The position numbers were made by a program, and so were the translations under genes. Below are positions 6,667 to 22,298 of a stretch of DNA of 64,000 nt, piece by piece. The notes beneath the pieces were generated by a model, which was not told the origin of the DNA, made no database searches, and saw only the letters and a list, made by a program, of their open reading frames with translations. This stretch comes from Candidatus Latescibacterota bacterium. GTDB taxonomy: Bacteria > Krumholzibacteriota > Krumholzibacteriia > WVZY01 > JAKEHA01. The DNA lies in NCBI GenBank assembly GCA_963707635.1, contig OY970173.1, positions 224,001-288,000 on the forward strand. Reading direction: 5' to 3'. The number at the start of each line of letters is the position of its first letter. Positions within the stretch are counted from its first letter, which is position 1.

Positions 6667-6749
6667 GAGGCATTTCTATCCCATCGTCGCGCTTGCCGAG
6701 CAGCTCAACTGAAGCGTGAGTTCTTTATCTGGGAAAGAATGGCTCCCTG

Positions 6750-6836
6750 GTGGCGCAGTACGAGGACAAGTATCGGCTCTGTTATCTCCGCGGCCCTGAG
6801 GGCATCATCGTCGCGCTGGCCGAGCAGCTCCGCTGA
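6750..6836 (+). pseudogene. 3' remnant of a VOC/glyoxalase family gene
   Basis: Translates VAQYEDKYRLCYLRGPEGIIVALAEQLR*, a typical VOC C-terminus; its last ~36 bp are duplicated at 6682-6717. Confidence 0.6.
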
Positions 6837-6894
6837 AGCGTTCGACCGTCGGTCGGGTGGAGCGCCTCGTCGTCCCGACTCAAGTGCTGAGGCG

Positions 6895-7848
6895 CTATTT
6901 GCCGGTTCGAATCGTCACGGAGGCGCGTTCGGCCGAGCCCGTGTCGACTTCGGTCACCACCACGATGCGTGACGGCTCGCCGTAGAGGTGCGGGATGAGC
7001 GTCGCCACCACTTCGTCGGCGATCGACTTCGCGAGGTTGAATGTCGGCGCGGTGACTTCCACTGTCACCGGTACCGTGGGAGCGGAGGAGTGGTTCAACC
7101 GTGTCGCCGCCTCCAGCACCACCGCTTCTGGCACGCGCCCCTGCACACTCTCCACAGATACCGAAAATGACATGCTGACGCCATCCTTGCTCTGCGTGAC
7201 GTGCGGCGGCAGCGTAAAGGCATCGCCGACGAAGCTGCGCTTGTTGCCCGCCTTGTCGGTCGCATTCAATACGTACGAATACGTGAGGTCGGAGCGCGCG
7301 GGTTTTCCGTCGATGGTCTCGCCATTCCACGCGATCTCTTTGGGCGGTTTGCCCGCGCCCTGGTAGCGAGCGACGGTCTTGCCGCGCGAATCGGCCACTT
7401 CGAGCGCCCATTTCTCGACACCGCTCACTTCGGGGCGGAAACGCGCGACGGGTCCGTCCCGGAAGGAATCGAGCCACGGCCGCGGCGCGTATGGCGAGCG
7501 CTCGTTCGCGGATCGTTCGAGCAACGGGTCGACAAAATCGAACGATTCCGCGCCGAGTGCCGTCCCCACGCTTTCCCAGTCGAGCCCGGGAGCGGTCGCC
7601 GGGTCAACTCCCAGCTTCAGCTCCGGCCGGTCGAACTGCACACGCACGCGGTCTTCGCCTTCCACGGTGATGCTGTTGAAGTTCTTGCCCTGCGCGCCGG
7701 CTTCGATGCGCATCGTGCTGTCCGGCGTCGCGGCTGTCGCCTTCTTCCGGGTATCGTTCGCAGATTTGGGTCCGGCCGCGTTCGCTCCATGCGCGAGGAG
7801 CCACACGCACGCTACACCGGACATCACGATGCGATTGCGTTTCGACAT
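6895..7848 (-). CDS. Secreted protein with FlgD-like Ig domain
   Basis: Signal peptide (..WLLAHGANA); WALEVADSRGKTVARY..IAWNGETIDGK..YSYVLNATDKAGN resembles FlgD_ig. Confidence 0.7.
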   Translation of the reverse strand: MSKRNRIVMSGVACVWLLAHGANAAGPKSANDTRKKATAATPDSTMRIEAGAQGKNFNSITVEGEDRVRVQFDRPELKLGVDPATAPGLDWESVGTALGAESFDFVDPLLERSANERSPYAPRPWLDSFRDGPVARFRPEVSGVEKWALEVADSRGKTVARYQGAGKPPKEIAWNGETIDGKPARSDLTYSYVLNATDKAGNKRSFVGDAFTLPPHVTQSKDGVSMSFSVSVESVQGRVPEAVVLEAATRLNHSSAPTVPVTVEVTAPTFNLAKSIADEVVATLIPHLYGEPSRIVVVTEVDTGSAERASVTIRTGK

Positions 7849-7876
7849 GGGACCCTTTCCTTTGCAAGAGCGCGCG

Positions 7877-8851
7877 CTACTGTGCGCCGCTCAGTCGGTA
7901 GTTGAACGTGATACGTCCCCATTGCTCGTTGGACGCGGGGCTCGACGGCAGCGCGACGAACTTCCACTCGAGCAGCGCCAGGACGGCGCGATCATCGAAA
8001 TCGGAAACGCCGCTGGTGCGCTCGACGAGCACGTTCTCTTTGACCCGCCCGTTGGGCAGCACGAAGAAATACAACGTCACCGAGCCCTCGATCGCGTCTC
8101 GCTTCGCCCAATCGGGATAGTCGGGAACGCGATAGCGCAGCACCTGGCGGTCGGCCACCGGACCGACCAGATTGGCCCCCGCGAGATTGCGCGCGCCCTG
8201 GCTCGGGGTTGTCGTCGTCGCCGGTTTCGGCGCTTCTTCGACGGGCGCTTCGATCAGCGCGGCCGCCATGACGGGCCTGGCCTCGGGGCGGCTTTCCAGG
8301 CGGCGCAACGCCACCGGTGCGGTGCCCGTTGCGACCGGTGCCGCGTCGCGCCGGAGCGTCGCGGCTACGGTGTTCGGCCGGTCACCCGGGCCCGGAAGGC
8401 CGGCAGGCGCGGGAATGCCGACATTCGGCGCGGGAATCAACGACGCGACGCGCGTGGTGGAATTTCCGTTGCGGTCGATCGCGTCGAGTCGTTTGTCGAG
8501 TAAATCCGTGACCGCGTGCGACGACTGTGACCCCGGCGCGTTGCTCGCGTCTTCGCGCGCGCGCTCGAAGGATTCGGGTGCTTTCGCCTCGCGTGTCGCC
8601 TTGAGCGAGACTTTTTGCACGGGCGCGCTGCTCGTCGTCTCGCTCGCCATCGGTGGCGCCGCATTCGGCTCTCCCGCCGGATCGGTCATATCGACGAACG
8701 TGATCTCCGTGAGCCCGGCCAGCTCGGTTCCGCTTGCTCGCGTGAGACCGAGCCATAGGAACACGATCAGGTGTAACACGATGCTGATGCCCATGCTCTC
8801 GCGCGTGCGCGCCTTGTCGTGCACCGATTCACGGATCGAAGCGTGCTTCAA
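7877..8851 (-). CDS. tonB: TonB-family energy transducer
   Basis: TM helix with S-x3-H (SIVLHL), Pro/Ala-rich linker, TonB_C domain YPDWAKRDAIEGSVTLYFFVLPNGRV..FDDRAVLALLEWKF. Confidence 0.9.
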   Translation of the reverse strand: MKHASIRESVHDKARTRESMGISIVLHLIVFLWLGLTRASGTELAGLTEITFVDMTDPAGEPNAAPPMASETTSSAPVQKVSLKATREAKAPESFERAREDASNAPGSQSSHAVTDLLDKRLDAIDRNGNSTTRVASLIPAPNVGIPAPAGLPGPGDRPNTVAATLRRDAAPVATGTAPVALRRLESRPEARPVMAAALIEAPVEEAPKPATTTTPSQGARNLAGANLVGPVADRQVLRYRVPDYPDWAKRDAIEGSVTLYFFVLPNGRVKENVLVERTSGVSDFDDRAVLALLEWKFVALPSSPASNEQWGRITFNYRLSGAQ

Positions 8852-9345
8852 GACTTCACTTCCTCGTTCGAGGAGCTGTCCTTGTGTGCGTCATGGATCG
8901 CTTTCCGCTCGGCGTTAGAATCCACATGCGACGACGCCTGTCCGCGCTGCTGCGTACCCACCGCGATTCGGGATGCGCCCGCGGCGCGCGCCGCGTCCAC
9001 GATCTTTCGCACCGACGCGTAGGCCACACTCTGGTCCGCGCGGATCACGACGATGGCCGCCTGGTGGTCGACGAGCCGCGCCGCGATCGCCTCCTTCAGT
9101 GCCGGCATGGTAAGATTCCTATCGTCCACCGCCAGCTCGCCGTTGGGGCCGAGCGTCACACTGATACGATCGTGGCCTTCGAGATTCCTGGTTTGCGCTT
9201 CCGGTAGCTTCACGTCCACATCCGATACTGCGATCATTGGCGCGGTGATCATGAGGATGATGACCAGCACGAGGGCCACGTCGATGATCGGCGTTACGTT
9301 GACTTTCGCGATCGGTCCTTCCGTCTGGGACTGAAGTCGTTTCAT
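8848..9345 (-). CDS. exbD: ExbD/TolR family biopolymer transport protein
   Basis: VNVTPIIDVALVLVIILMITAP TM with conserved Asp; VVIRADQSVAYASV. Confidence 0.92.
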   Translation of the reverse strand: MKRLQSQTEGPIAKVNVTPIIDVALVLVIILMITAPMIAVSDVDVKLPEAQTRNLEGHDRISVTLGPNGELAVDDRNLTMPALKEAIAARLVDHQAAIVVIRADQSVAYASVRKIVDAARAAGASRIAVGTQQRGQASSHVDSNAERKAIHDAHKDSSSNEEVKS

Positions 9346-9358
9346 TTGACTCTCCGGT

Positions 9359-9769
9359 CTAGAGGTCGAAGACGGCGATGTCGGTGGCGCCGCTCTGCCG
9401 GGCCTGGTCGAGCACGTTGACAAAGGCCCCGTGGCTGACACCCGGCTCGCAGCCGACGAACACACCGCGGTCGACGCCGGCCTCGAGAAGCGGCATGAGC
9501 GCGCTCTTCAGCGCCGCGCGCGGCACCAGGTCTTGGTTCACGCGCACGTTATCCTCCGACTCGATGATGATCTCGATGCGTTCGCTCTTCTTCTCCACTT
9601 TCGCCTTGCGGCCGGTCTTGGCCGCGCCGCTCACGTCGATGCGCGACTCGAAGGCGAGCGGGGTGGCGAGAATCAGCATTACCACCAGCACGAGCGACAC
9701 GTCGATCAGCGGCGTCATGTTGACCTCGCAGTTCGGCTCCGCGTCGCGGTTCCAATGCGTGATATTCAT
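9359..9769 (-). CDS. exbD: ExbD/TolR family biopolymer transport protein (second paralog)
   Basis: VNMTPLIDVSLVLVVMLILATP; VSHGAFVNVLDQARQSG. Confidence 0.9.
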   Translation of the reverse strand: MNITHWNRDAEPNCEVNMTPLIDVSLVLVVMLILATPLAFESRIDVSGAAKTGRKAKVEKKSERIEIIIESEDNVRVNQDLVPRAALKSALMPLLEAGVDRGVFVGCEPGVSHGAFVNVLDQARQSGATDIAVFDL

Positions 9770-9776
9770 GGCCTTG

Positions 9777-10481
9777 TCAGCCAATGTTGACGGTTTCGTG
9801 CGTTCGGAGCTTCCGCGGCGCCGGCTCCTCACGCATGCGACGACCCGCACGGTCGTCGGGGTCGCCACCATCGTTGAGCGCGGTACGCAATGCACGCGCT
9901 TGATTCTCCGCGATCGTCAGCATGACGTTCATGCGGCGGACGAAGTGGTTGTACGCGATGAGCGACGGCACGGCGACCACCAGGCCCACCGCCGTCGTAA
10001 TGAGCGCCTCCGCGATGCCGCCCGCGACCACGGTGGGCGCCGCTGACCCCACCAGCGCCATGTCGTGAAATGCGCGCATGATGCCCCACACGGTGCCAAG
10101 CAACCCCACCAGCGGCGCGGTGACAGCCATCGTGCCGAGGATGTTCAGGTTGCGCTCCAGGACGAGCTTCTGTTCGGAGAGTGTGACCACCAGCCGCTCG
10201 TCGAGCTCTTCGTTGCTCTCGCCCGGCGCCGCGAGCACGACCCGCATCGTCGCGGCGGCGGGGTGCCGGGAGTGCTCGCACGTCCACATGGCCTCCTTGA
10301 TGTCGCCGCGGCGCATGCGCTGCAACACCTCGCGGGCGATGTGCGCTGTGTCTCCACGGCGCGTCCAGTAGTAGTACGCGCGCTCGATGACGACGCCGCA
10401 CGTCACCACACTGAACGCGATCAGCGCAATCAGCACCGGACTTTGGGAAGTCAGTTTGATCCAGTCGAAATTCGAGTACAT
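9777..10481 (-). CDS. exbB: MotA/TolQ/ExbB proton channel
   Basis: APLVGLLGTVWGIMRAF and GIAEALITTAVGLVVAVP motifs. Confidence 0.95.
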   Translation of the reverse strand: MYSNFDWIKLTSQSPVLIALIAFSVVTCGVVIERAYYYWTRRGDTAHIAREVLQRMRRGDIKEAMWTCEHSRHPAAATMRVVLAAPGESNEELDERLVVTLSEQKLVLERNLNILGTMAVTAPLVGLLGTVWGIMRAFHDMALVGSAAPTVVAGGIAEALITTAVGLVVAVPSLIAYNHFVRRMNVMLTIAENQARALRTALNDGGDPDDRAGRRMREEPAPRKLRTHETVNIG

Positions 10482-10499
10482 GCGGGCTCTCCTTGTGGG

Positions 10500-13400
10500 T
10501 TACTGCGTCGCACGCTGCGGCGCACCGGACTGGAGCTCGCTCGCGCGCTCTTTCGCGGCGACCACGATCTCCGGATCGGTGGCGTTCTTGACGAGGTCGC
10601 GATAAGCGGCCAGCGCCTTCGGGTAGTCCTTGATCTTCTCGTAAAGGGCGGCGCTGTGCGCGATAGCGGAAAGCCGGTACGTGTCGGCTTTCTGGCTGTA
10701 GTTTGCCGCGAGGGCGTAGGCGGCGATCGCCCCCCGTTCGTCACCCAACTTCTCGCGGCAAAGCCCCAGTCGATAACGGATCTCGACCAGCGTCGCGCCC
10801 GGCATCTTGTGCTCGAGCGCGCGGCTGTATTCGCCGGCGGCTTCCTTGAAGCGGCCCGCGTCTTCGTGGATGATGCCGAGCTGCTGCGCCACTTCGCCGC
10901 TGCGCTCGTCGCGCGGGTGCTCCGTGCGGTACGCCGCCAGCATCTCGCTTGCCTGCTCGGGCTCGCCGAGCATGCGGTGGCAGAGCGCCAGGTTGTACTG
11001 CGCCGCCGTCTTCACTTCCGGCGCGGTCGAGTCCGCGAGCACGGCGGTGAAGTCCAGCGCGGCGCGCATGTAGTCACCTTCCGCGAAGCGCGCGGCGCCG
11101 AGCTGCAATTGCACGGAGCCGCGGTACTCGCTCTGCGGGAAGAACGATACAAACTGTTCGCAGGCTGCGCGCGCTTCCGGAGTCTTCCCGGCGCGCGTGT
11201 ACGAATCGGCCATCAGGTAGTGCGCGCGATCGGCCGCTGCGTACGAAGGGAACTGGCTCACCACGCGGCGAAACGCCTCCGCGGCGGCCTCGTAGTCCTT
11301 CGCCTGGTAGCGGCGCAGCGCAATCTCGAACTGTGCCTGCGCGGCAAACGAGCTGCCCGGATACTTCTCGACGAGCTGCGCGAGTGTGGCTTCGCCGTCG
11401 GCGCCCTGGCCGAGCTGGTAGAGCGCCTGCTCGAGGCCTTTCTTCGCGTCGGCGACCACCGCGTGGTCGGGGAAGCGCGCGATCACTTCCGAGTACGATT
11501 CCACGGCCTGCGGGTAGCGCGCCGCGTTGTAATCGCACTGCGCCATGCGCAGAAGCCCCACGGCAGCGCCGCTGCTCTCGCCGAAGTTCGTGAGCAGTCC
11601 TTCGTAGCAGCGACGCGCCTTGTCGTAGTGGCCGGTCAGGAAGTAGACATCGCCTGCGCGCGTCCACGCCCTCTCGGCGATGGCTGACGCGGGATCGATG
11701 CGCGCTGCTTCGTCCCAGCGATCCACCGCATCGCCGGTCTGGCCAAGACGCTGGTAGCACATGCCGGCCTGGTAAAGAGCGAGCGCGCGGTCCGGATGGT
11801 TCGGGAAATCCCGGAGGAACGCTTCGTACGTGCGCGCCGCGCTCTTGTAGTTCTTTTCGTTGAACAGAATGTGACCCTTGTTGAGGTACGCCGTGCTCAT
11901 GTCCTCGACATGACCGGTCGCGCCGTAGCGCGCGAGCATCTTGTCCTGCGTCTGCATGGCGAGGTCGAGTTTGCCTTCCTGCGCGTACGACCATGCGAGC
12001 AGCCGGTGCGCGGGCACACCGACGGCCTGGCCGCCGAACTCGGCGATGAGCTGCTGCAGCACCTCCTGGGCCTCGGTTTGACGACCCTGCGCCGCGAGTG
12101 CATCGGCATCGATCAGGAGCGCATCCGCGCGCCACGGCGACTTGCTCGGCGGCATGCGCTTGAGCATCAGGTGGGGAACACCGGACAACAGTCCGAGATT
12201 ACCCGCGCGGTGGTACGACAGCTCGAGCAGGCACAAGGACGCTTCCACGAGCTCCTGTCGCTCGGGTGTCGCGAATTCGATGGTGCCTTCGCCCTTGTCC
12301 TGCGCGTAGCGGTCGAGCACCAGACGGAAGTAGGGCACCGCGGCCATGGGCTTGTCCTGCGCCAGCATGCCGGTGCCCGCGAGGTATGCCGCGGCCGGCG
12401 CCTCGCGCGAGGTGGGATAACCGGAAACAACGGTTTGATATGCACTCGTCGCTTCGCTGTGGCGACCGAGCGCGTCGAGCGAGCGGCCGACGCGGTACTG
12501 CGCGAGTGAGGCCAGCGAATGCTGGAAGTAGCGCGTGAGCACTTTGTTGAATTCGACAATGGCCGCTTCGTACTGCTTGTCCTGGAATAGCACTTCGCCC
12601 AGCACGGCCTGCGAGCGCGCGGCGACGTTCGTGCCGTCGTACTCGGATGTCACCGCGCGCAGCGCATCGGTGCCGCCCTGGGTGTCGCCGGCAAGATACG
12701 TGGCTGCCGCGCCGCGCACCCTGGCTTCCGCCTGGATCGACGGATCAACCGCCTTGGTGGACACGAGCGCGAACTCTTCCATCGCGCTCTTGTACGAGCC
12801 GCTCTTCATGAACACGTTGGCCTTCGCGAGCATGGCGACGTCGGAGAGGCGCGCGTCATGATAGCGGTCGACCACTTCCTGGTAGCGCGCGGCCGCCTGC
12901 AGCGGTCTCTTCGTCGCTTCGTCGGTGAGCGCACGCAGATAGATACACGCCGCGTCGAGGGGCGAGCCGCTGGGAAGGACGCTCACGTCGGCGTACCGCC
13001 CCTCGAGAAACGCGGCCGTGGAGAGAGCCAGCGCAAAACGCGGGTCGCGCACGATCCACGGGAAACGCGTGCGCGCTTCCTTGAGCGTGCCGTTGGCGAG
13101 ACCCAGGCTGTCGGCCCGGATCGCCCCCCACGCGCGCGCGAGCAATGCGTCTGATACAGCGGTGGAACGGCCGTGGGTGTTGAACCACTGCGCCCATTCC
13201 TTGTCCGCCTGCGCGGCACGGCCGCTGGCCTGCTGCGACTGAATCGCGCCGAGGCTCGCGTCGGCCGCGAGCGGGGTGTCCTTCGATTCCTTCGCGGCGG
13301 ACTTGAACGCCTGCGCGGCGTCGTCGTAGCGGCCGTTGGCAAAGCGGATCTCACCGCAGAGAAAATACGCTGCTGCCTTTTCCTCGCCGCCGAGGTTGCC

Positions 13401-13589
13401 GATGAGCGCGTTCACGCGCGCATCCAGGTCGTTGAGGGTTTCGCTGCGCTCGATGGCGGCAAGCCGGTTCGCCTTCTCGAACGCCATCCCGAGGCCCGCA
13501 AGCTGTGATTTCGTGTCCGTGCTCGCCGCGCTCGCAACACCCGTCGCGAGAGCCACCATCGCCGCTGTAATGAAGCTGGTTCTGTGCAT
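10500..13589 (-). CDS. Large periplasmic tetratricopeptide-repeat protein (YbgF/BamD-like TPRs)
   Basis: Signal peptide; ~1000 aa of TPRs of the A..Y..VI..FP.S..A..A.Y..G type. Confidence 0.9.
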   Translation of the reverse strand: MHRTSFITAAMVALATGVASAASTDTKSQLAGLGMAFEKANRLAAIERSETLNDLDARVNALIGNLGGEEKAAAYFLCGEIRFANGRYDDAAQAFKSAAKESKDTPLAADASLGAIQSQQASGRAAQADKEWAQWFNTHGRSTAVSDALLARAWGAIRADSLGLANGTLKEARTRFPWIVRDPRFALALSTAAFLEGRYADVSVLPSGSPLDAACIYLRALTDEATKRPLQAAARYQEVVDRYHDARLSDVAMLAKANVFMKSGSYKSAMEEFALVSTKAVDPSIQAEARVRGAAATYLAGDTQGGTDALRAVTSEYDGTNVAARSQAVLGEVLFQDKQYEAAIVEFNKVLTRYFQHSLASLAQYRVGRSLDALGRHSEATSAYQTVVSGYPTSREAPAAAYLAGTGMLAQDKPMAAVPYFRLVLDRYAQDKGEGTIEFATPERQELVEASLCLLELSYHRAGNLGLLSGVPHLMLKRMPPSKSPWRADALLIDADALAAQGRQTEAQEVLQQLIAEFGGQAVGVPAHRLLAWSYAQEGKLDLAMQTQDKMLARYGATGHVEDMSTAYLNKGHILFNEKNYKSAARTYEAFLRDFPNHPDRALALYQAGMCYQRLGQTGDAVDRWDEAARIDPASAIAERAWTRAGDVYFLTGHYDKARRCYEGLLTNFGESSGAAVGLLRMAQCDYNAARYPQAVESYSEVIARFPDHAVVADAKKGLEQALYQLGQGADGEATLAQLVEKYPGSSFAAQAQFEIALRRYQAKDYEAAAEAFRRVVSQFPSYAAADRAHYLMADSYTRAGKTPEARAACEQFVSFFPQSEYRGSVQLQLGAARFAEGDYMRAALDFTAVLADSTAPEVKTAAQYNLALCHRMLGEPEQASEMLAAYRTEHPRDERSGEVAQQLGIIHEDAGRFKEAAGEYSRALEHKMPGATLVEIRYRLGLCREKLGDERGAIAAYALAANYSQKADTYRLSAIAHSAALYEKIKDYPKALAAYRDLVKNATDPEIVVAAKERASELQSGAPQRATQ

Positions 13590-13596
13590 AGGGATG

Positions 13597-14868
13597 CTAC
13601 TCCACGATAACCGGCACGCCGCCCTGCGGACCCGACGTGGTGATTTCGACCTTGTGCTCCTCGGCGCGGAGCGTACGGCCCTCTTCGTCGGTGACCACGA
13701 GGCGGTAGATGTAGAAGCCGTCCGGCAAGGTCATGCCGTTTTCGTCCTTGCCGTCCCACATCACGTGTGCGGGCGGAACCCCGGCGCCGCCGAACGTGCG
13801 CACGATCTGGTTGTGCTTGTCGACGATGTCGAGCTGCCACTGCTTGGTCTCCGCCTTGGTGCGCGCCTTGATGTTGAACTTGGTGACGGAGTTCTCGCCG
13901 ATCGGCGAGAAGACTTCTGGCGTCGCGTACGAGTTCGCGAAGAAGCCGCCGAACTTGTACGACACGGCAAGATAGTGCACGAGTCCGAGCTCGTGGTCGT
14001 TCATGCCGTAGTCGAACTGCATCGTCTGGTTGAGCCGATAGCTGAAGCCTCCCGCCGGTTCGTCGAAGGCGTATCCGGCGCGCAGGCCGAATGTGTCCTG
14101 GAACCACACTTCGGTGCCGGCGTGAAACGTCGTGCCTGGCCCTTCACGATGGTCCGCTTCGAGCGAAAGAAGTCCGCGCCCGTTGAGGAACGCGAAGGCG
14201 ACCCCGCCGCGCACTTCGAGCGGGTAGGTCTCCTTGACGTCGCGCGGCTGGAGCGACGGTCCGCCCAGATTCAGGAGCGAAACGCCGACGCGGAGCCGCG
14301 GCGTCACACTGTAGAGACCGCCGACGTCGGCTCCCACACCGGTCGAGGTGAAATCTTCGACCTGCTGGCGCACGATCTTGAGGTTGGTGCCGAGCGAAAG
14401 GCGCGGCGTCACGCTCTTCGCGGCGCTGATGAGGAAGGCCATATCGCTCTGCTTGAACGTGCCCAGCGATTCGTTGATATCGCTGGTGCGCTCGAAGTCA
14501 CCCGAGCTCAGCGACAGCATCGTGAATCCGAGCGACGGCAGTCGTCCGGACGGCATCACGAAGCTCAAACCGTTGATCGACGTGTCTTCGAAGTAACGCG
14601 CGGTTTCGAAGTGCGCTTCGTTTTGAAGCGACTGGGTGAGACCGGCCGGGTTCCACACCACGCCGAGCGCATCATCGGCGGTGGCGACGAAAGCGCCGCC
14701 CAGGCCGATCGAGCGCGCCGAAGCGTAGCGGGAGAGCCAGTCGCCGGGCACCCCGGCGGCGGCTTCCTCGGCGCGCGCATTGCTGCTCACGAGCGTGAGC
14801 GAGGCACACGCAGCGCCGCCCGCGACGATGAATCTAAGCATTGAACGAATCCGTTTGATGCAATGCAT
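13597..14868 (-). CDS. PorV/PorQ (FadL-like) family outer-membrane beta-barrel fused to a C-terminal FlgD-like Ig domain
   Basis: ARSIGLGGAFVATADDALGVVWNPAGL N-terminal signature; amphipathic beta-strands; C-terminal VFSPIGE..WQLDIVDKHNQIVRTF..WDGKDENG..PDGFYIYRL. Confidence 0.85.
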   Translation of the reverse strand: MHCIKRIRSMLRFIVAGGAACASLTLVSSNARAEEAAAGVPGDWLSRYASARSIGLGGAFVATADDALGVVWNPAGLTQSLQNEAHFETARYFEDTSINGLSFVMPSGRLPSLGFTMLSLSSGDFERTSDINESLGTFKQSDMAFLISAAKSVTPRLSLGTNLKIVRQQVEDFTSTGVGADVGGLYSVTPRLRVGVSLLNLGGPSLQPRDVKETYPLEVRGGVAFAFLNGRGLLSLEADHREGPGTTFHAGTEVWFQDTFGLRAGYAFDEPAGGFSYRLNQTMQFDYGMNDHELGLVHYLAVSYKFGGFFANSYATPEVFSPIGENSVTKFNIKARTKAETKQWQLDIVDKHNQIVRTFGGAGVPPAHVMWDGKDENGMTLPDGFYIYRLVVTDEEGRTLRAEEHKVEITTSGPQGGVPVIVE

Positions 14869-14883
14869 GTGACTGCTCCTCGC

Positions 14884-17800
14884 TTAACGCACGGCCGCGA
14901 TCTTGCGCGTCATGGTGTGAAGCGTTTCGCCCTGGCCCGCCGCTTCGATGCGAAGCACGTAACCGCCGCTCGAGACGAAATCGCCCTTTCCGTTCCTGCC
15001 GTCCCACGTGACCTGGTTGAGACCCGCGCTGCCGCCGGGCGAGCCGGGCGTGTAGGTCTTCTCGTACACGAGCCCGCCCGTGAGCGTGAAGATCCTCATC
15101 GTCACGGTGGCGTTGTCGTCGAGCTGGTAGGCGATCGTGGTCGGCGCCTCGCCCGGATGGAACGGGTTCGGGTAGTTGGTGACGAAGCCACCGGCGGCGT
15201 TCGGATCGACGAAGGCCGTCTCGATGTCGAGGTCGCCGTTGAGCGATCCCGACACGGCGCGGACGCGGCTGCGTTCCGGCGTGCGCGGACTGCGGAAGTA
15301 GCAGCGCGCGACACCGTCCTCCGTCGTGACGGAATCGATCGCCGTCAGCGAGCCGGAGCCCTGCGTCAGTGAGAACTTGACGGGCCGGTCTGGCACGCCG
15401 TTCTCGTATCCATCGATCACGCGCGCGGTGATTAGGGCGCGCTTGTTGCCGCCCACCCACCTCGGGTCACTGGAGAGCTTGATCTCCGTGGGCGCGCCCG
15501 GTGCCACCGTGATCACTTCGGACGTAGCCGGCGCGTTGCCGGCGTCGTCGCGGACAACCAGCACAATTGGCTCGGCGAAGGTGTACGTCTCCGGCATCGT
15601 GCGCTGCCCCTGCAGGAGCTGAAACTGTGTGGAGTACAACGTGCCGCGGCCGGGTGCGCGCGTGGTCGCGTGTTGCACGTCGACGGTGACGGCCGAGTTG
15701 ATCTCCTGGATGACACTGCCCGCGTCGTTGGTTATTTTCACGGTGAGCGTGAACTGTTCTCCGGCCTGCACGCTGAGCGGCGCTACAACGGCTTCCAGGT
15801 GGAAACCGCTCGAGATCGTGCGCACCTGCGTCGTGCTGGTCGGCATGCTCGGCCGCGTCACGTTGGACGCGGTGATCTGCTGAAAACCGCCGGTCGAAAG
15901 GCGCACGCTCATCTGCGCGACGCCGTCGACCATCGCCTGGTTGGGCGGGAGCTGCGCGAGCGGGTCATTCGACGTCAGATGAATGAGGTCGGTGGCACCG
16001 CCCACCGGGTTGTACCACTGGTCGGTCGCCTGCACGGTGACCACGAAGGAGTAATTGATCGACTGGTCGGTCGCGGTGCCCGTACGTCCTTCCGGCGTTC
16101 CCGGCGCGATCGACTCGCCCGGGCAGAGCACCACGATGCGCGAGTACGGACCGCCGATGATGCGAATCTGCGTCGACGTGTGGCCGTTCACGTTGCCGTC
16201 CGTCACATCGGTCGCGGTGACGCGTTGCATGCCCGATCGGTACATGCGGGTCGGCACGACGAGCTCGCCGTTGACGAGTGTGATCTGCGCCGGCATCTGC
16301 GCGAACGCGTCTGTCGACGACAGCGCGATGGTATGCGTATTGCCGGTGACGCGGTTGAAGTACTGGTCGCACGCGCGCACGGTCATGTTGAACTGTGCAC
16401 CCGCCTGCTGGTCGGTCGGCGTGCCCGTGAATCCGCTCGCGGTTCCGCCCGCCGCCGTCATGCCGGGATAGAGAATCAGCAGTTTCGCAACCGGACCCGG
16501 ATTGACGACGAAGTTGTTGCTCATGCCGGTGTGCGGAGGCGCGGAGAAATCCGCCACGGTGAACGACACCGCACCGCCCGCCCCCTTGAACATCATCGAG
16601 CCCTGCCACACGCCGTTGGTGAACACGATGGACTCAGGCGTGATGCTGCCCGGGCCGGTGTTGGCGATGATCAGCGCGTTGCCGTTGAATCCCGACACGG
16701 TGTTTCCGCTCTGATCGGTGGCGCGAATGCGCACGCTGACCGGTACTCCCGCCGTCTGCGGCGAGCTGATTGGATCGACGATGAAACGCTGCGCGGCATT
16801 CGCCATCACCGGAATGCCCTGCGTCGTAAAGGGCGTGATCGAACTGCGATCCCGGTCGGTCGCCGTCAGCGTCTGCGTTCCCACCGTGACGAGCGTGTAG
16901 TTGAAGCGCTCGTATCCGTTATCGAGATCGACGATGATCGTCGACGCACCCGGGTCACTCGAGGTGATGCGGGCATCGTCCTCGCTGGGCACCGGATTGA
17001 AGTAGTTATCCGTCGCGTACACGTCGACCGAGAACGGCTGGCCCGAGCTCTGTGCGGCGGGATTTCCAACATAACCGAGAAGACTGCCCGGCAATGGATC
17101 CTGGCCCGGCACGATGAGGAGAAGTTTCCGGAACGATCCGGGGTTGACGTAGAAGGGATCGCTGGTACCGTTGATCGACCCGTCGGTGTCGAGGTAGGCA
17201 TAAATGTTCACGTTGCCGCGACTTCGGTTGGTCACGTCGGCGCGATAGACCGTAACGTCGCCCGACCACACGCCACCCGACATCGTGATGACTTCCGGAT
17301 ACGCCCGGCCGACACCGTAACTCGTGAGTTCCTGCAAACTCACCTGTCCGTTGTAATTGACCAGCATGCCCCGCGGGTCCACCGCGCGGATGGTGACGTC
17401 GATCGGCTGGCCGGCATACTGCTCGCGGTGCCTGATGCTCGAGAAGGTGAAGCCCTGGAGCAGCATCGACGTGACGGGTGCCGAGATCGCGTTCGCAATG
17501 GTCGGGTCGGAATTGTCATCCGCGGTAAACGTGAAGGATCCCGCGGCATTGAGCGTCGCCTGAACCGTGGAGGTTCCGCCCGAGAGCGAAAACGACGGCG
17601 GCAGCGACGCGCTCCCGTCGGTGGAAGCGAGCGTCACGGAGTTCGTCACCGCGGTCACCAGGTTCCACGAGTTGTCGCATGCGCGAACAACCATGTTGAA
17701 CGGGACGCCGACGGTCTGCGTACGCGGAGCTCCGGTCTTTCCGGTGCCCGTTCCCGGCGCGGGCGCTTCACCCGGCAACAGGATCTGGAGTTTCGTGTAG

Positions 17801-17895
17801 GACTGCGCGACGGCGATGCGCGGAGTAACCGCACCGATCGCGGCGCAGGCCATAAGGCACACGAAATACCCGAGCGTCTTGAGGGCGTGTCGCAC
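14884..17895 (-). CDS. Secreted multi-Ig-repeat surface protein with C-terminal T9SS type A/FlgD-like sorting domain
   Basis: Likely GTG start at 17895 (RBS GAGGTG); tandem Ig-like modules, invasin Big_1-like domain, then NYPNPF..IAYQL..VTMRIFTLTGGLV..WDGRNGKG..SGGYVLRI..KIAAVR. Confidence 0.85.
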   Translation of the reverse strand: MRHALKTLGYFVCLMACAAIGAVTPRIAVAQSYTKLQILLPGEAPAPGTGTGKTGAPRTQTVGVPFNMVVRACDNSWNLVTAVTNSVTLASTDGSASLPPSFSLSGGTSTVQATLNAAGSFTFTADDNSDPTIANAISAPVTSMLLQGFTFSSIRHREQYAGQPIDVTIRAVDPRGMLVNYNGQVSLQELTSYGVGRAYPEVITMSGGVWSGDVTVYRADVTNRSRGNVNIYAYLDTDGSINGTSDPFYVNPGSFRKLLLIVPGQDPLPGSLLGYVGNPAAQSSGQPFSVDVYATDNYFNPVPSEDDARITSSDPGASTIIVDLDNGYERFNYTLVTVGTQTLTATDRDRSSITPFTTQGIPVMANAAQRFIVDPISSPQTAGVPVSVRIRATDQSGNTVSGFNGNALIIANTGPGSITPESIVFTNGVWQGSMMFKGAGGAVSFTVADFSAPPHTGMSNNFVVNPGPVAKLLILYPGMTAAGGTASGFTGTPTDQQAGAQFNMTVRACDQYFNRVTGNTHTIALSSTDAFAQMPAQITLVNGELVVPTRMYRSGMQRVTATDVTDGNVNGHTSTQIRIIGGPYSRIVVLCPGESIAPGTPEGRTGTATDQSINYSFVVTVQATDQWYNPVGGATDLIHLTSNDPLAQLPPNQAMVDGVAQMSVRLSTGGFQQITASNVTRPSMPTSTTQVRTISSGFHLEAVVAPLSVQAGEQFTLTVKITNDAGSVIQEINSAVTVDVQHATTRAPGRGTLYSTQFQLLQGQRTMPETYTFAEPIVLVVRDDAGNAPATSEVITVAPGAPTEIKLSSDPRWVGGNKRALITARVIDGYENGVPDRPVKFSLTQGSGSLTAIDSVTTEDGVARCYFRSPRTPERSRVRAVSGSLNGDLDIETAFVDPNAAGGFVTNYPNPFHPGEAPTTIAYQLDDNATVTMRIFTLTGGLVYEKTYTPGSPGGSAGLNQVTWDGRNGKGDFVSSGGYVLRIEAAGQGETLHTMTRKIAAVR

Positions 17896-18408
17896 GGTAT
17901 CACCTCGCGAGCGATCAATCGGGAAGCGCGCGAATGCGCGTGACACGATCGGTCTGCTTCGTCTATCGACGGTTGTAACGGGACTTGTGTCGCTGCGAAT
18001 GCGAGCGAGATATGTGCCGGAAGCCGCCGTGTGCGGCGCGTGCGTGCGCGTGCGGGATACGTTGATCTCAGCGTACCCGCGCCGTTCTCATGATCGTGGC
18101 TTCGCGCGGCCGTTAGGCGAGGTGTCCGAAGGTCGCGCAATGCGATTTACCACGGAATCGAGATTCATGAATTGCACGACGGGCAATACCAAGAGCTGCG
18201 GGCCGCATTTCCGCTGCGGAAATGAACGGGAATCCACAAAGTACGTACTTCTATCGCCTCGAAGGGTCAGGTGCAGCGGCGAGAATGGTTCTTACTGTAG
18301 GTGGCAGCGGGTCACCACTTGCGTTTCGGATGGCGACTCGATACGATGGACGGTCGTGTGCGTCAAACCCAGCTCTAGGAGTGTTCCCTTGGCTTAAGGA
18401 GGACTCTA

Positions 18409-19184
18409 GTGCACAGTTTTTCGAAAGCAGTTCTCATGCTCTCGCTTTGCCTGGTCTCTGCACCCGCGCTAGCCGCTGATCCGGCGTACTTCCGAATTCC
18501 TGATGAAAACCCCTATGGTGGAGGTCCGGGTTTCGGTGGCTATCACCCCTCCCATGAACAGTATTTTGGTCATCTGTGGGGGGTATTCTCTATGAGGACC
18601 TTCGTCAGCTCACCAAAGTGCTCCAGGTGGCGTCCGGAGGCGCGGGCGGCTCACAGATGTACTGCATCACACAGCTCTATGACAACTTGCCGCTAGGGGA
18701 GCGAGGTCCGACAACGTTCTTCGATATCAGTCGGTGGGAGAGTTTCCACGCCGGTCAACCATGGCCTCTAGATTCCTTCTTTGACATCTACTATGAGGTG
18801 AGGCCGGCCGGATTCGGCTCCCCGTTGACGTCGCTCTTCCCTGTCAATCCCAGTCTACCGGCGACGGACCCCGCGCGTTTCTTTGACATCACGTACGTTG
18901 ATTCTTTTTTTGACATCACGTACCGGTGCGTGAGTCTTTATGGAACGTATGAAATGCATCTTCATGGAGAACTGCAGCCCGCGCTCCGCCTCCAGAGTCT
19001 GGGCGTTCATCACCAGTCCAGCGGCGAGAGCTTCTTTGATGTCTTTTTCGACGTGGACCGTGTCGGCACTTTCGATCCGTCGAAACCGCTGCTGAAGACC
19101 ACGACGACCGGTGAAAACATTGGCGATGTCATCGCGGTTGAATCCGTCACCTGGGGCGCGGTAAAGGCGCTTTATCGTCAATAG
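18409..19184 (+). CDS. Secreted SFFD-repeat protein, paralog of 832-1590, frameshifted at a G6 run (18578-18583)
   Basis: ORF 18409.. has the signal peptide; ORF 18576..19184 has five FFD repeats and C-terminal VESVTWGAVKALYRQ; one extra G joins them (GHLWGGILYEDL vs paralog GHMTGGSFHLDL). Confidence 0.75.
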
Positions 19185-19376
19185 TCGCGGTCGCGCGACA
19201 CGGCTTCTTGTTCCACTGGAGGCGGCGATCGTCGATCGCGACGGAGGGCCGGGCGCCAGAGGGCGGTGGATACGGCTTCAGCGTACCGATCAACCCCGCG
19301 GACGAACGCCGCTCCAGTGGAGCATGAAGCGACTGGAACGCATGGGCACCGAAGGCAGAGGGAGATAGAAAAAGAG

Positions 19377-19388
19377 TGGCTCCCCAGA
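19377..19388 (+). repeat. att-like copy of the tRNA-Asn 3' end (TGGCTCCCCAGA)
   Basis: First 9 bp match 21982-21990; all 12 bp match 20822-20833; AACGCATG lies 40 bp upstream here and at the tRNA. Confidence 0.65.
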
Positions 19389-19548
19389 GTGGTGGGAGTG
19401 AGACACGCCTTGCGATGCGTCGGAGTCTAGTCCCGCCTGTCCGTCGAGCGCTATCGATACCGCCCCTTGTCAACGCCCTGGCCGCTACCCGGCGGGTGGT
19501 ATACTTGGTGCGTCTCAGTTTCTTCACGGCCGGTTAGGAAGCTCGGAG

Positions 19549-20751
19549 ATGAGCAGATACCTCAGGCTCCCTCTCGCATTTGTTCTGCTTACGTCGGTCG
19601 CGTCCCACCGTGCCGACGCCGACATCGCACCCAACCCCCTGACGGGCGGCTGGCCAGTCATCCGTTATGAAGAAGGAACCACCGACGTGCGGATGGTCGC
19701 CGAGGACGTTGTTGTGCGCATCTACGCGGACAGCATCGTGACCGTCGGCTCTTTCTCGATGTTCAATGAAGGGAAGACCGTCGACATGGTGGTAGGATTC
19801 CCGTTCCCTTACTCGAACGATCTCATCCGCTTTCGAGCCTTCGTCGACGGCCGACCCGTCGAGATCCGTGGCGCGCAGAAGGAGGTTTCAGCGGGCGCGA
19901 AGAGATCGACAGCCTACTGGAAAGTCTGGGATATGGCTTTTCGCGAGGGCGTAGCGTGCGAGATTCGAGTCGAATACAAGACGAAGCCCTCACAATCGGA
20001 AGGCTGGTTTTCTGCGCGTGAAGGGTTTTCTTCACTGCCTGCCGACGTGCTCGAAGCGTATCGACAGGCCACGGCCAGAGGAGACGTGGAGTACACACTC
20101 GAAACGGGACAACAATGGAAGGGCATCCTTGATCGTGCCAGAGTCTCATTCGAGTTCGTCGGAATGTCCGGCGATCGTGTCTTGAGATACCAGCCGGACA
20201 GTGGGGTCGCCACAGGGAATGGCGTCGTCTGGGAATACACTGACTACGAACCTTCGGGATGGGTCGCCCTCGAGTACACTCCATACCTACCGGTACAGCA
20301 GATACCGGCTGTCCTTCTTGGCATCGTGAAACGCTTCCCTGACGACCCACAGCTTGCCAGCAATGTGGGCCGTTTTTGTGCTTCCGGCCTGGATAGGAAC
20401 GACCTGCAATGCGAGATCTACCACTCGTTTCTTGCGGCCTGGGACAAGCGGATCCCTCAACTGATGGAATACGCACCGGGTGGCCGATGCAGGGTCAATT
20501 ATCAGGCCGAGGGAGGGTTTTTTGCGGTCTGGCACATGGCTCGCGACCTTTTCCGACAATACGAGAGGAATGGTGGCATTGAGAAAGGCAAAGACATCGC
20601 GTCGACGGTGTTGCTGATATCCGGAGCAATCGTGGACTCGCTCTACACCTGCGGTGGTCTGCCGGGGAAAGACGAATGGCTGTCTCGCGAAGCCATCGCA
20701 ATTCGCGATCTCTGCAATGAGTTGATCAAAAAGAACGGGGGAGGCCGTTAA
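19549..20751 (+). CDS. Secreted hypothetical protein (DUF4424-like N-terminal domain)
   Basis: Signal peptide; VRMVAEDVVVRI..DMVVGFP..YTLETGQQWKGILDRARVSF; extended -10 TGgTATACT at 19497-19505. Confidence 0.7.
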   Translation: MSRYLRLPLAFVLLTSVASHRADADIAPNPLTGGWPVIRYEEGTTDVRMVAEDVVVRIYADSIVTVGSFSMFNEGKTVDMVVGFPFPYSNDLIRFRAFVDGRPVEIRGAQKEVSAGAKRSTAYWKVWDMAFREGVACEIRVEYKTKPSQSEGWFSAREGFSSLPADVLEAYRQATARGDVEYTLETGQQWKGILDRARVSFEFVGMSGDRVLRYQPDSGVATGNGVVWEYTDYEPSGWVALEYTPYLPVQQIPAVLLGIVKRFPDDPQLASNVGRFCASGLDRNDLQCEIYHSFLAAWDKRIPQLMEYAPGGRCRVNYQAEGGFFAVWHMARDLFRQYERNGGIEKGKDIASTVLLISGAIVDSLYTCGGLPGKDEWLSREAIAIRDLCNELIKKNGGGR

Positions 20752-20821
20752 GTCACGTCGCTCGAGTATGTCGGAAAGAAGATGCGGGTGGACAACCCAG
20801 ATAGGACGACGTGAGGAAAAT

Positions 20822-20833
20822 TGGCTCCCCAGA
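20822..20833 (+). repeat. att-like copy of the tRNA-Asn 3' end (TGGCTCCCCAGA)
   Basis: Matches the tRNA 3' terminus; preceded by GTGAGGAAA, which also occurs at 21949-21957. Confidence 0.65.
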
Positions 20834-20892
20834 CGTAACGCTACTCGAACCGCGAAGGAGTTTGTTGAGCTTGTCAGGGTGTTGTGGCCGCA

Positions 20893-21855
20893 CTACTTAC
20901 CGTTCCCGGGGAACTTGTAACGGGTCTGACCACGCCACAGAATCTTGAAATCGCCTTGCTCTGGCATCCACATGTGCCGTGGCTGGACCGACGTTTCGAA
21001 GACCTCCAAGTGGAGAATCAGTTCTGCGTCCTTAGCCGCTCGGATTCGTGCGGAGACATCCGGCGGCAAGAAGGACGTTCCCGGATTCCCAGCTGTTCCG
21101 CCCAGGCTACGCGGATACTCCGAAATCGTTGTGCCATCGACGCGCGTTTCCAAATGCCAACGGTTCCCGAGTGCGAATCCAGGCCTCTTCTTCACCCGAA
21201 TCTTGGAAGTCGCCTTGTACGTCCAGCCGATCTGCCCCGGGACCTGGGTATTGTCAATGACCAGCGTCTTCGGAACCTCAACCTCCTCGATTGCTACGGA
21301 TGCAGGAAGGATCGTCAGCGCGCAAGGTTGAGATTCGATCTTCCCAGTCCATAATGTCAACGGTCCTTCATAGACGCGGCTGCGATACTCGCGTGTCGAA
21401 TCCAAATACGCTTCTATGTTCCGGCCACCATCGTTCCCATAGATTGCTGTCACCGAGTATTCGCCGGCGGACATCTGCTCACCTCGCTCGGAAAGGAGGT
21501 GCACGGTCAAGTACTCCAATGGTATTCGGTCGCCATGTTTCAGGTGCACGAGATTTCCGGGCTGTTCCATCGCCAGCATGCCCACGCTATATGGTGAGCG
21601 CGCGAACGACTCTGCCGTCTTCTTGTTCACAAACAGGAACTCGCAACGGCTGGAAAACCGATTGAGAATTCGCGTATGACTAGCGGCGATGGTCGTATCG
21701 AACGCTAACGTAACATTGAATTGAACGGCGTCGCCCATCGGGACCGTGGCCGGGTCCGCCTTCAGCGTCGCGGTGAGCCCGTCATGCTGAGTGACGGGAG
21801 GTGAATCCGTGGTAACGAAGAAGCCCAGAGCTATAGCAGCGGCGATCAATCGCAT
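20893..21855 (-). CDS. Secreted hypothetical protein
   Basis: 320-aa ORF with hydrophobic N-terminus MRLIAAAIALGFFVT; visibly more A/T-ending codons than core genes. Confidence 0.7.
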   Translation of the reverse strand: MRLIAAAIALGFFVTTDSPPVTQHDGLTATLKADPATVPMGDAVQFNVTLAFDTTIAASHTRILNRFSSRCEFLFVNKKTAESFARSPYSVGMLAMEQPGNLVHLKHGDRIPLEYLTVHLLSERGEQMSAGEYSVTAIYGNDGGRNIEAYLDSTREYRSRVYEGPLTLWTGKIESQPCALTILPASVAIEEVEVPKTLVIDNTQVPGQIGWTYKATSKIRVKKRPGFALGNRWHLETRVDGTTISEYPRSLGGTAGNPGTSFLPPDVSARIRAAKDAELILHLEVFETSVQPRHMWMPEQGDFKILWRGQTRYKFPGNGK

Positions 21856-21981
21856 GTTTTCATGATGCGCCTTCGCGCGCGCCGCGGCAAGGCGCTAGGT
21901 TCGAGCGTCCTATCTGGGGTAGAGCGTGCTCGAACTCTCGAAACGCATGTGAGGAAACGTGATTTGGCCGGAAAAATAGAA

Positions 21982-22298
21982 TGGCTCCCCGGGTAGGACT
22001 CGAACCTACAACCCTGCGGTTACAAGGGTTCCCTTTGTTGCCAAAGGGCTCGGACTATCTCATCACCCGTCCCGAATGGCTCAGGCGAGGGTGTCGGGCG
22101 CTGATGGGGCTTATCGGTTGAGAATCCTCATCCCCTAGTCTCTGCACGTTCCCGCCTACTTGGTCATCTCATTCGGCGGGCTTCGCTCAGGATTACCCTG
22201 TAAGGGCTTCCCTGAATTCACCCGATTTTTCACCAACGGTCTCCCGTTGGAGCTGCATTCGAATACAGCCGCATGCTCTACCATTGAGCTACCGAGGA
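21982..22298 (-). tRNA. trnN: tRNA-Asn(GTT), split by a group I intron (exons 22265-22298 and 21982-22022)
   Basis: Spliced sequence TCCTCGGTAGCTCAATGGTAGAGCATGCGGCTGT|TAACCGCAGGGTTGTAGGTTCGAGTCCTACCCGGGGAGCCA folds into a full cloverleaf with anticodon GTT, discriminator G and encoded CCA. Confidence 0.95.
22023..22264 (-). ncRNA. Group I self-splicing intron (IC-like), 242 nt, no homing endonuclease ORF
   Basis: P1 GCUGU/GCAGC with U.G at the splice site; P2 CCAACGG-GAGA-CCGTTGG; P3 TCGGGTG/CGCCCGA; AATTCAGGGAA..AATCCTGAG; GTGCAGAGACT..GATAGTCC (P7); P9 CCCTTTG-GCAA-CAAAGGG; terminal G. Confidence 0.93.

Follow-up and report, generated by a model that had tools for sequence, protein, structure and literature searches.

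Direct repeats of the tRNA-Asn 3' end bound recombinase-less single-gene units in a Krumholzibacteriota genome and resemble attachment sites of a large serine recombinase

The locus studied here is the tRNA-Asn gene of a Candidatus Latescibacterota bacterium (phylum Krumholzibacteriota), together with the tandem array of small single-gene units found downstream of its 3' end. The analysed window is the 64-kb stretch 224001-288000 of a one-contig, 3.2-Mb genome (96% complete, GC 0.66), and positions refer to this window unless a genome coordinate is given. The tRNA-Asn(GTT) gene lies on the minus strand (21982-22298), encodes its CCA end and consists of two exons (22265-22298 and 21982-22022) that ARAGORN, run with introns, assembles into a spliced tRNA of 75 nt. 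Default ARAGORN without the intron option finds no tRNA at this locus because a 242-nt group I intron (22023-22264, minus strand) splits the anticodon. The intron matches the group I core (Rfam RF00028, 95.5 bits), is preceded by a U at its 5' splice site and ends in G, and its splicing restores tRNA-Asn. Williams 2020 catalogued group I introns of this kind, located in the anticodon loops of tRNAs. The anticodon intron is present in G001, G003, G006, G008, G012, G014 and G015, and absent from G002, G007 and G013. A second tRNA-Asn call in the genome (G000:C1:1664314-1664388) has an atypical sequence with a duplicated 5' part and may be degenerate.

The last nine bases of tRNA-Asn, TGGCTCCCC, constitute a core with copies at 21982, 20822 and 19377. 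These direct repeats of the tRNA 3' end sit downstream of the gene and in the same orientation, as in the ssrA islands discussed below, and the two inner ones extend identically as the 12-mer TGGCTCCCCAGA, whose only occurrences in the whole genome are those at 19377 and 20822. The 9-mer has 29 copies genome-wide; despite this, two extra copies within 3 kb downstream and on the right strand exceed the genome background (P = 9e-5, or ~0.004 when all 48 tRNA/tmRNA entries are taken into account). These 9-12-nt cores were not among the top families of a general repeat search.

The cores delimit two units without a recombinase gene, unit 1 (20822-21981; 1160 bp, GC 0.566) and unit 2 (19377-20821; 1445 bp, GC 0.579), both within the lowest 1% of the 1.2-kb windows of the genome in GC content. 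Each has one main open reading frame (ORF), and their orientations are opposite: the gene of unit 1 (20893-21855, minus strand) encodes 320 aa and that of unit 2 (19549-20751, plus strand) encodes 400 aa. An earlier sequence-only reading of the window had described the tRNA-Asn gene, the three cores with their shared inner extension, and two small low-GC units with one gene each in differing orientation; all of this was confirmed, apart from the intron that the tRNA proved to contain. It had also taken the cargo to be secreted proteins, and the hydrophobic N-termini are indeed found on both ORFs, which may therefore be secreted. Homologues of the 320-aa protein (55% aa identity) adjoin a junction in G008 and occur without a core in G013, and those of the 400-aa protein, in G001, G100, G108 and G110, are all distant from any junction. 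Neither protein, nor the SFFD protein described below, belongs to any family found with Pfam and NCBIfam. As mere leads, language-model features make the 400-aa protein DUF4424-like, and the Atlas matches of the 320-aa protein are unnamed clusters only. A 13-bp inverted repeat that exists nowhere else in the genome has one arm near the end of unit 2 (20796-20808) and the other near the end of unit 1 (21906-21918), with E = 0.2 within the array.

Comparable junctions are found in relatives. The tRNA-Asn 3' end was identified in 10 of the 16 congeners. In seven of the ten the sequence continues for over 1 kb downstream, and inner cores are present in four of these seven (G001, G008, G012 and G013). 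Their units measure 1.0-2.3 kb, plus one of 6 kb, and at the same junctions the cargo differs between species. The G001 array contains paralogues in opposite orientation. Two metagenome contigs add three junctions, one pair of them 476 bp apart. The consensus of the junctions is GCGATAGAAAAAGAA followed by the core and AGAGTGGTGGAYGT, a pattern with 6 sites in 5 of the 23 genomes of the family and 0 in the controls.

When the consensus left arm is read through the core, it gives KEAIEKEWLPRVVDVR. A serine recombinase located on tRNA-Asn in G018 ends in AINKIWLPG, and the proteins P0018, P0021, P0030 and P0035 end in EAIEKEWLPG. The homologues of the G018 protein, a large serine recombinase (LSR), carry PF00239, PF07508 and PF13408, and a WL motif lies within the last 80 residues of 96 out of 121 proteins (the query and its best 120 homologues). 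Junction arms that encode the LSR-tail peptide were found in G008, G001, G006, L049 and L050 and, in the window, at the junction around 19377 (J2). Moreover, the 3' end of the LSR gene overlaps the attachment (att) site in G018, G058, G087, G099, G047 and G176, an arrangement of the ssrA type observed here in relatives. Since the LSR C-termini match the arm-encoded peptide, the left arms are, to judge by their sequence, the final codons of an LSR gene that has the att site in its own 3' end. If the coding end of the LSR gene is an att arm, the units would derive from LSR elements, and we have little doubt about the LSR origin of the junctions. Remnants of such genes are found at tRNA-Asn across the phylum in various states: full in G099, G047, G087 and G058, frameshifted in G118 and G171, and reduced to 91, 51 and 40 aa in G110, G020 and G008, respectively. 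In G176 there is an intact 4.7-kb element, made up of the LSR and three genes, with a distal core.

No LSR of this family was detected in the units, the 64-kb window or the genome by a search that recovered its positive control in G058; the absence of an integrase from the window, which had already been pointed out, is thus borne out for the relevant family and extends to the genome. With one protein query, none was found in the 16 congeners either (68-97% complete). No parent element turned up for unit 1 or 2; what is seen is the LSR tail at J2 and, in relatives, the graded remnants. No intact element combining the exact EIEKE arm with the AGAGTGGTGGA arm was obtained. In a viral collection the left-arm pattern was not matched, and three LSR loci with 43% identity were found. 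A literature search, mostly of freely accessible papers, returned no paper on this LSR family or on such arrays. Elsewhere in the genome, a pair of tRNA-Asn-like cores encloses a 7.3-kb element (G000:C1:1134873-1142160, L001) at a site that is not a tRNA gene, behind a gene that reads as queG-like. The element encodes a 998-aa secreted-type protein and retains what we read as a recombinase-like C-terminal stretch running into the core, without a family match.

The three junctions of the window differ in their arms. The left arm of J2 (19359-19399, plus strand; core 19377-19385) encodes REIEKE, the C-terminal tail of the LSR, and reading through the core gives EIEKEWLP, as at the C-terminus of full-length LSRs. 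This match is significant for the six residues (p = 0.0005) as well as for the DNA (score 14 against a null maximum of 12 of 3000), and the right arm of J2, AGAGTGGTGGGAGT, is common to congeners. J1 (20822-20851, plus strand) combines the core with an attP-type right arm: the T-loop motif of the tRNA, ACTCGAACC, recurs at 20843-20851 as an exact 9-mer shifted by exactly 5 bp away from the core. J0 (21982-21990, plus strand), with its core at the tRNA 3' end, has an A-rich left arm that is not significantly LSR-like (score 9 against a null 99th percentile of 8). Since the right arms of J1 and J2 differ, these junctions likely derive from two LSR subtypes. The sequence-only reading had also proposed two upstream arm motifs. 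AACGCATG is indeed located 40 bp before a core at both 19337 and 21942 (33 of 20000 shuffles), and GTGAGGAAA, a weak match, at 20811 and 21949 with differing offsets (20 of 1500 shuffles); yet the other junction arms examined do not share them (none of these 20 has more than 4 of the 8 bases of AACGCATG), and both were rejected as arms of the att family.

The displacement seen at J1, a line of evidence independent of the LSR tails, is reminiscent of known serine integrase sites. The attP and attB sites of the LI/A118 integrase differ by a 5-bp displacement of their distal motif (Rutherford et al. 2013, PMC3783163), and the same 5-bp shift separates J1 from the tRNA T-loop. Unlike in that system, the J2-type arm shows the shift weakly and not clearly, and the sites described here are predicted from sequence. 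The T-loop motif is found at +5 in 5 of 19 junctions, and never in more than one of them at the other offsets between -3 and +12. These 19 are the junctions with at least 8 A/T among the 15 bases left of the core, a filter that dropped two real junctions (in G012, 2721 bp from the tRNA, and in L050 at 3905) and kept the LSR-proximal sites of G030 and G192. A pattern with the 5-bp spacing has 14 sites in 8 of the 208 genomes of the phylum and none in the reversed control; as it was built on J1, the match at its own locus is by construction. Finally, base 8 of the core differs between the tRNA and the distal core in G043, G020 and G118, and because each copy retains its own base, the crossover is placed to the left of it.

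These observations can be joined in the following model. An LSR would integrate small circular DNAs at the CCA terminus of tRNA-Asn, the 3' end of the gene being the proposed target and the right half of attB. The attB site would comprise the T-arm and acceptor end of the tRNA, with the T-loop as the motif of the zinc-ribbon domain and the crossover within TGGCTCC, and attP would be the 3' end of the LSR gene itself. Each integration would restore the tRNA and displace older units outward, so that inner junctions should consist of a P arm, the core and a P' arm. The LSR gene would later be deleted, leaving a few to about 40 codons of its tail and one cargo gene; should another LSR visit the cell afterwards, it could cut the unit out or take it along. 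That the junctions are attP-like and result from successive site-specific integration at the tRNA 3' end, as previously suggested, is supported, and the enzyme can now be assigned to the LSR family: because one boundary carries a truncated LSR gene tail, the stack likely records repeated site-specific insertions. We therefore regard the junctions as likely attachment sites left by an LSR, and the units as probable recombinase-less derivatives that would become mobile again only with a visiting related LSR.

The array may extend further from the tRNA. A candidate unit 3 (18155-19376, GC 0.569) is missing together with units 1 and 2 in a run X1 contig that has about 88% identity with the left flank, joins 18154 to 21974 with unread letters between them and thus points to a relative without any of the three units. 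This joint, the low GC and the LSR tail left of J2 make it plausible that the gene in this interval, which had been proposed as a third unit, is one; however, the outer core was not found. The gene (18409-19184, plus strand) encodes an SFFD-repeat protein, 37% identical to a paralogue at 832-1686, that has a C-terminal TWGxxKxLYR motif. It is split in the assembly by a one-base frameshift. An independent, otherwise identical contig holds one extra base within 18485-18656 that restores the frame, which makes a misassembled G6 run (18578-18583) the likely cause of the frameshift. Genome-wide, 42 reading-frame ends match the C-terminal motif [TS]W[GS]x[ILV]Kxx[YF], which three cargo genes of the G001 array also carry and which is possibly a lineage-specific sorting signal. 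A contig of run X5 spans J2 without differences.

The most extensive arrays come from genus g20, in another family of the phylum, where 28 attP-type sites were found in five of five genomes and none in the control. Long runs of att-delimited single-gene units are formed there (G096, G154, G142, G038 and G132; loci L141-L146 and L150-L160), with up to seven junctions per contig. From core to core, 26 intervals range from 29 to 1967 bp with a median of 1174 bp, and among them are some of 29-58 bp that hold no gene. A full LSR of the family is present in G058, of the same genus. Two recombinase-less single-gene units are shared between genomes from core to core, whereas their flanks are non-homologous: unit A is 91.6% identical between G096 and G154, and unit B 93.7% between G096 and G038. 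The two are neighbours in G142 and separated in G096. Because such near-identical enzyme-less inserts have differing neighbours, units of this kind may still move, and the shared g20 units suggest movement as minimal units. For the window units, mobilisation in trans and a rotating repertoire of surface proteins, both put forward in the sequence-only reading, stay hypotheses, and these g20 units are the best indirect support for them. In-place decay also occurs, since the LSR tail of unit A measures 60, 41 and 15 nt in three genomes. Several g20 arrays terminate not at a tRNA gene but at a tRNA-like site of 24 nt that has other DNA behind it. The right flank of these sites is orthologous between species, and 10 of the 28 g20 sites have an altered TGG left of CTCC.

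Some further features of the genome deserve mention. At 6720-6850 of the window there is an att-like site with the same left arm as the L001 element and a core shortened to 8 nt; it is fused to a 3' fragment that we take to be glyoxalase-like. In G012 the 11.2-kb operon beside it (6896-18113) has the opposite orientation with respect to the tRNA. Downstream copies of tRNA 3' ends bound units of 0.7-8.8 kb at tRNA-Thr (1612137), tRNA-Ser (2431244), tRNA-Lys (2848943) and tRNA-Asp (2717137), several of these units being single-gene and integrase-less. An integron-integrase fragment (G000:C1:806098-806427, L175) lies about 560 kb from the array among small genes, perhaps in a decayed integron.

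Several scenarios may explain the array. The simplest, that short repeats arose by chance in low-GC variable DNA, could appeal to a core of just 9 nt with 29 genome copies, but the local P value is 9e-5 and the same junction motif occurs downstream of tRNA-Asn in four congeners, with no match in the control; chance is refuted by the junctions and arms shared with congeners, and we give it practically no credit. Integrons are defined by IntI, attI and attC cassettes. The capture of genes by a true integron-type system, with IntI or a host Xer acting on attC-like sites, would be congruent with tandem one-gene units, and a 69-residue C-terminal fragment of an integron integrase exists at 806 kb. 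Nevertheless, the window has no RYYYAAC...GTTRRRY box pair, the junctions fold no better than shuffles (z from -0.87 to +1.58), the cargo is in mixed orientation, the only full tyrosine recombinases best match XerC and XerD-type models in housekeeping contexts, and the arms encode an LSR tail. The missing attC features largely refute this scenario, which is very unlikely, and the label "integron-like" given to the array at first fails in its strict sense, there being neither attC boxes, hairpins nor an intact IntI. Slightly less improbable, though still quite unlikely, is that the short tRNA fragments stem from tyrosine-integrase islands or from local duplication, the likeness to LSR ends being a coincidence. 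3' tRNA copies bounding units are the usual signature of tyrosine-integrase islands (PMC4383910), and the tRNA genes for Thr, Ser and Lys of this genome do have 22-45-nt copies bounding small units; at tRNA-Asn, however, only 9 nt are duplicated, and each of the two arms is conserved between species and agrees with LSR coding ends.

The scenario hardest to separate from LSR-mobilised units is that of fixed fossils, in which full LSR elements arrived, lost their recombinase in place by ordinary deletion and are now immobile. It agrees with the continuum of LSR remnants at tRNA-Asn, with the deletion end points of g20 unit A that differ between genomes, with the 7.3-kb element that keeps only a recombinase-like C-terminal stretch, with the lack of a detected LSR in the genome or the 16 congeners and with the left arms of J0 and J1, and the same option is considered by McMurdie et al. 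(PMC3146451) for ssrA islands without a module. Yet fossils do not easily account for g20 units that lack a recombinase, are 91-94% identical, end together at the cores amid unrelated flanks and are adjacent in G142 but not in G096, nor for genus g1, where no junction examined has a family tail longer than 40 codons. We thus hold immobile fossils to be rather unlikely, and incline to the view that the minimal units, as their distribution in g20 suggests, can still be mobilised. A number of points weigh against the favoured reading as a whole. The LSR tail is significant at J2 only (p = 0.07 at J1 and 0.55 at J0), and two unrelated genome sites come near the score of J2 on the six-residue test and above it on longer ones. 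The evidence for mobility stems from a different family of the phylum than the genome of the window and is weakened by fragmented assemblies; deletion between repeated P' arms could also yield sharp ends of homology at the core, and simple decay would explain the graded LSR remnants just as well. The loci compared contained no near-identical copy of unit 1 or 2, the cargo homologues being 49-58% identical and mostly without flanking cores. Seven sequencing runs contain matching DNA (best share 0.17; no RNA run among those listed). The contigs of four of them showed neither circles nor core-to-core joints, which is uninformative given their low depth. A directionality factor was neither sought nor identified.

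Among published systems, the Dehalococcoides ssrA array and the cis-mobilizable elements (CIMEs) of streptococci come closest. The ssrA islands depend on the LSR DsiB, whose gene overlaps attL at its 3' end, and 15 of them lack an integration module and were proposed to be cis-mobilizable (McMurdie et al. 2011, PMC3146451). They resemble the present array in their tandem arrangement at the 3' end of a tRNA-like gene and in an att site that contains the 3' end of the LSR gene. They differ in having a tmRNA target, a 20-bp repeat, a crossover in the T-loop and a six-gene module, whereas here the target is tRNA-Asn, the core is 9 nt long at the acceptor end, the units are single-gene and 0.5-2 kb long with no integration module in those of the window, and autonomous elements are as small as an LSR and three genes (G176). 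Streptococcal CIMEs and microCIMEs (1.2-13 kb; PMC7563491) are decayed, recombinase-less elements that retain att sites and cargo and lie in tandem stacks. Like them, the window units consist of cargo between retained att sites without recombination or transfer genes, and the gene-less intervals of g20 recall micro-units. CIMEs, however, stack with conjugative or mobilizable elements at the ends of protein genes, the most decayed lying farthest from the target. The present array has neither an integrative conjugative element, an integrative mobilizable element nor an integrase beside it, the unit next to its tRNA lacks a recombinase, and its arm is formed by the LSR tail. Islander (2014, PMC4383910) describes tRNA islands that are likewise bounded by a tRNA and a displaced 3' fragment and may form tandem arrays. 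According to that paper, no serine recombinase is known to use a tRNA gene as its target; it rejects candidates below 2 kb or without an integrase, so the window units fall outside its scope.

The likeness to integrons lies in arrays of small single-gene units added at one end and, in g20, in units common to different neighbours; the differences are the mixed orientation, the tRNA target and the lack of attC boxes or hairpins, an intact IntI and a resident recombinase. More tentatively still, a phylum-wide LSR analogue of the integron could be envisaged, of which this locus would be a short example and in which a roaming LSR that reads the tRNA-Asn T-loop, and whose last codons provide the att arm, would build and reshuffle recombinase-less single-gene cassettes of about 1.2 kb, both at tRNA-Asn and in other chromosomal places where a 24-nt site mimics the tRNA. 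We see this as a possibility that falls short of being probable.

Very short tRNA-end repeats, which island finders reject, can now be assigned to a named family of enzymes and to an att geometry that lends itself to testing. Both att half-sites are readable from the junctions, and with a predicted attB made up of the conserved T-arm and CCA end of tRNA-Asn, the LSR family is a candidate genome-engineering tool. The g20 arrays offer the best material for tests of cassette mobility. If the units are fossils, the locus would reflect ordinary island accretion, as known from ssrA islands and CIMEs; if minimal units move, uncultured bacteria of the Krumholzibacteriota type would own a cassette-shuffling system based on a serine recombinase.

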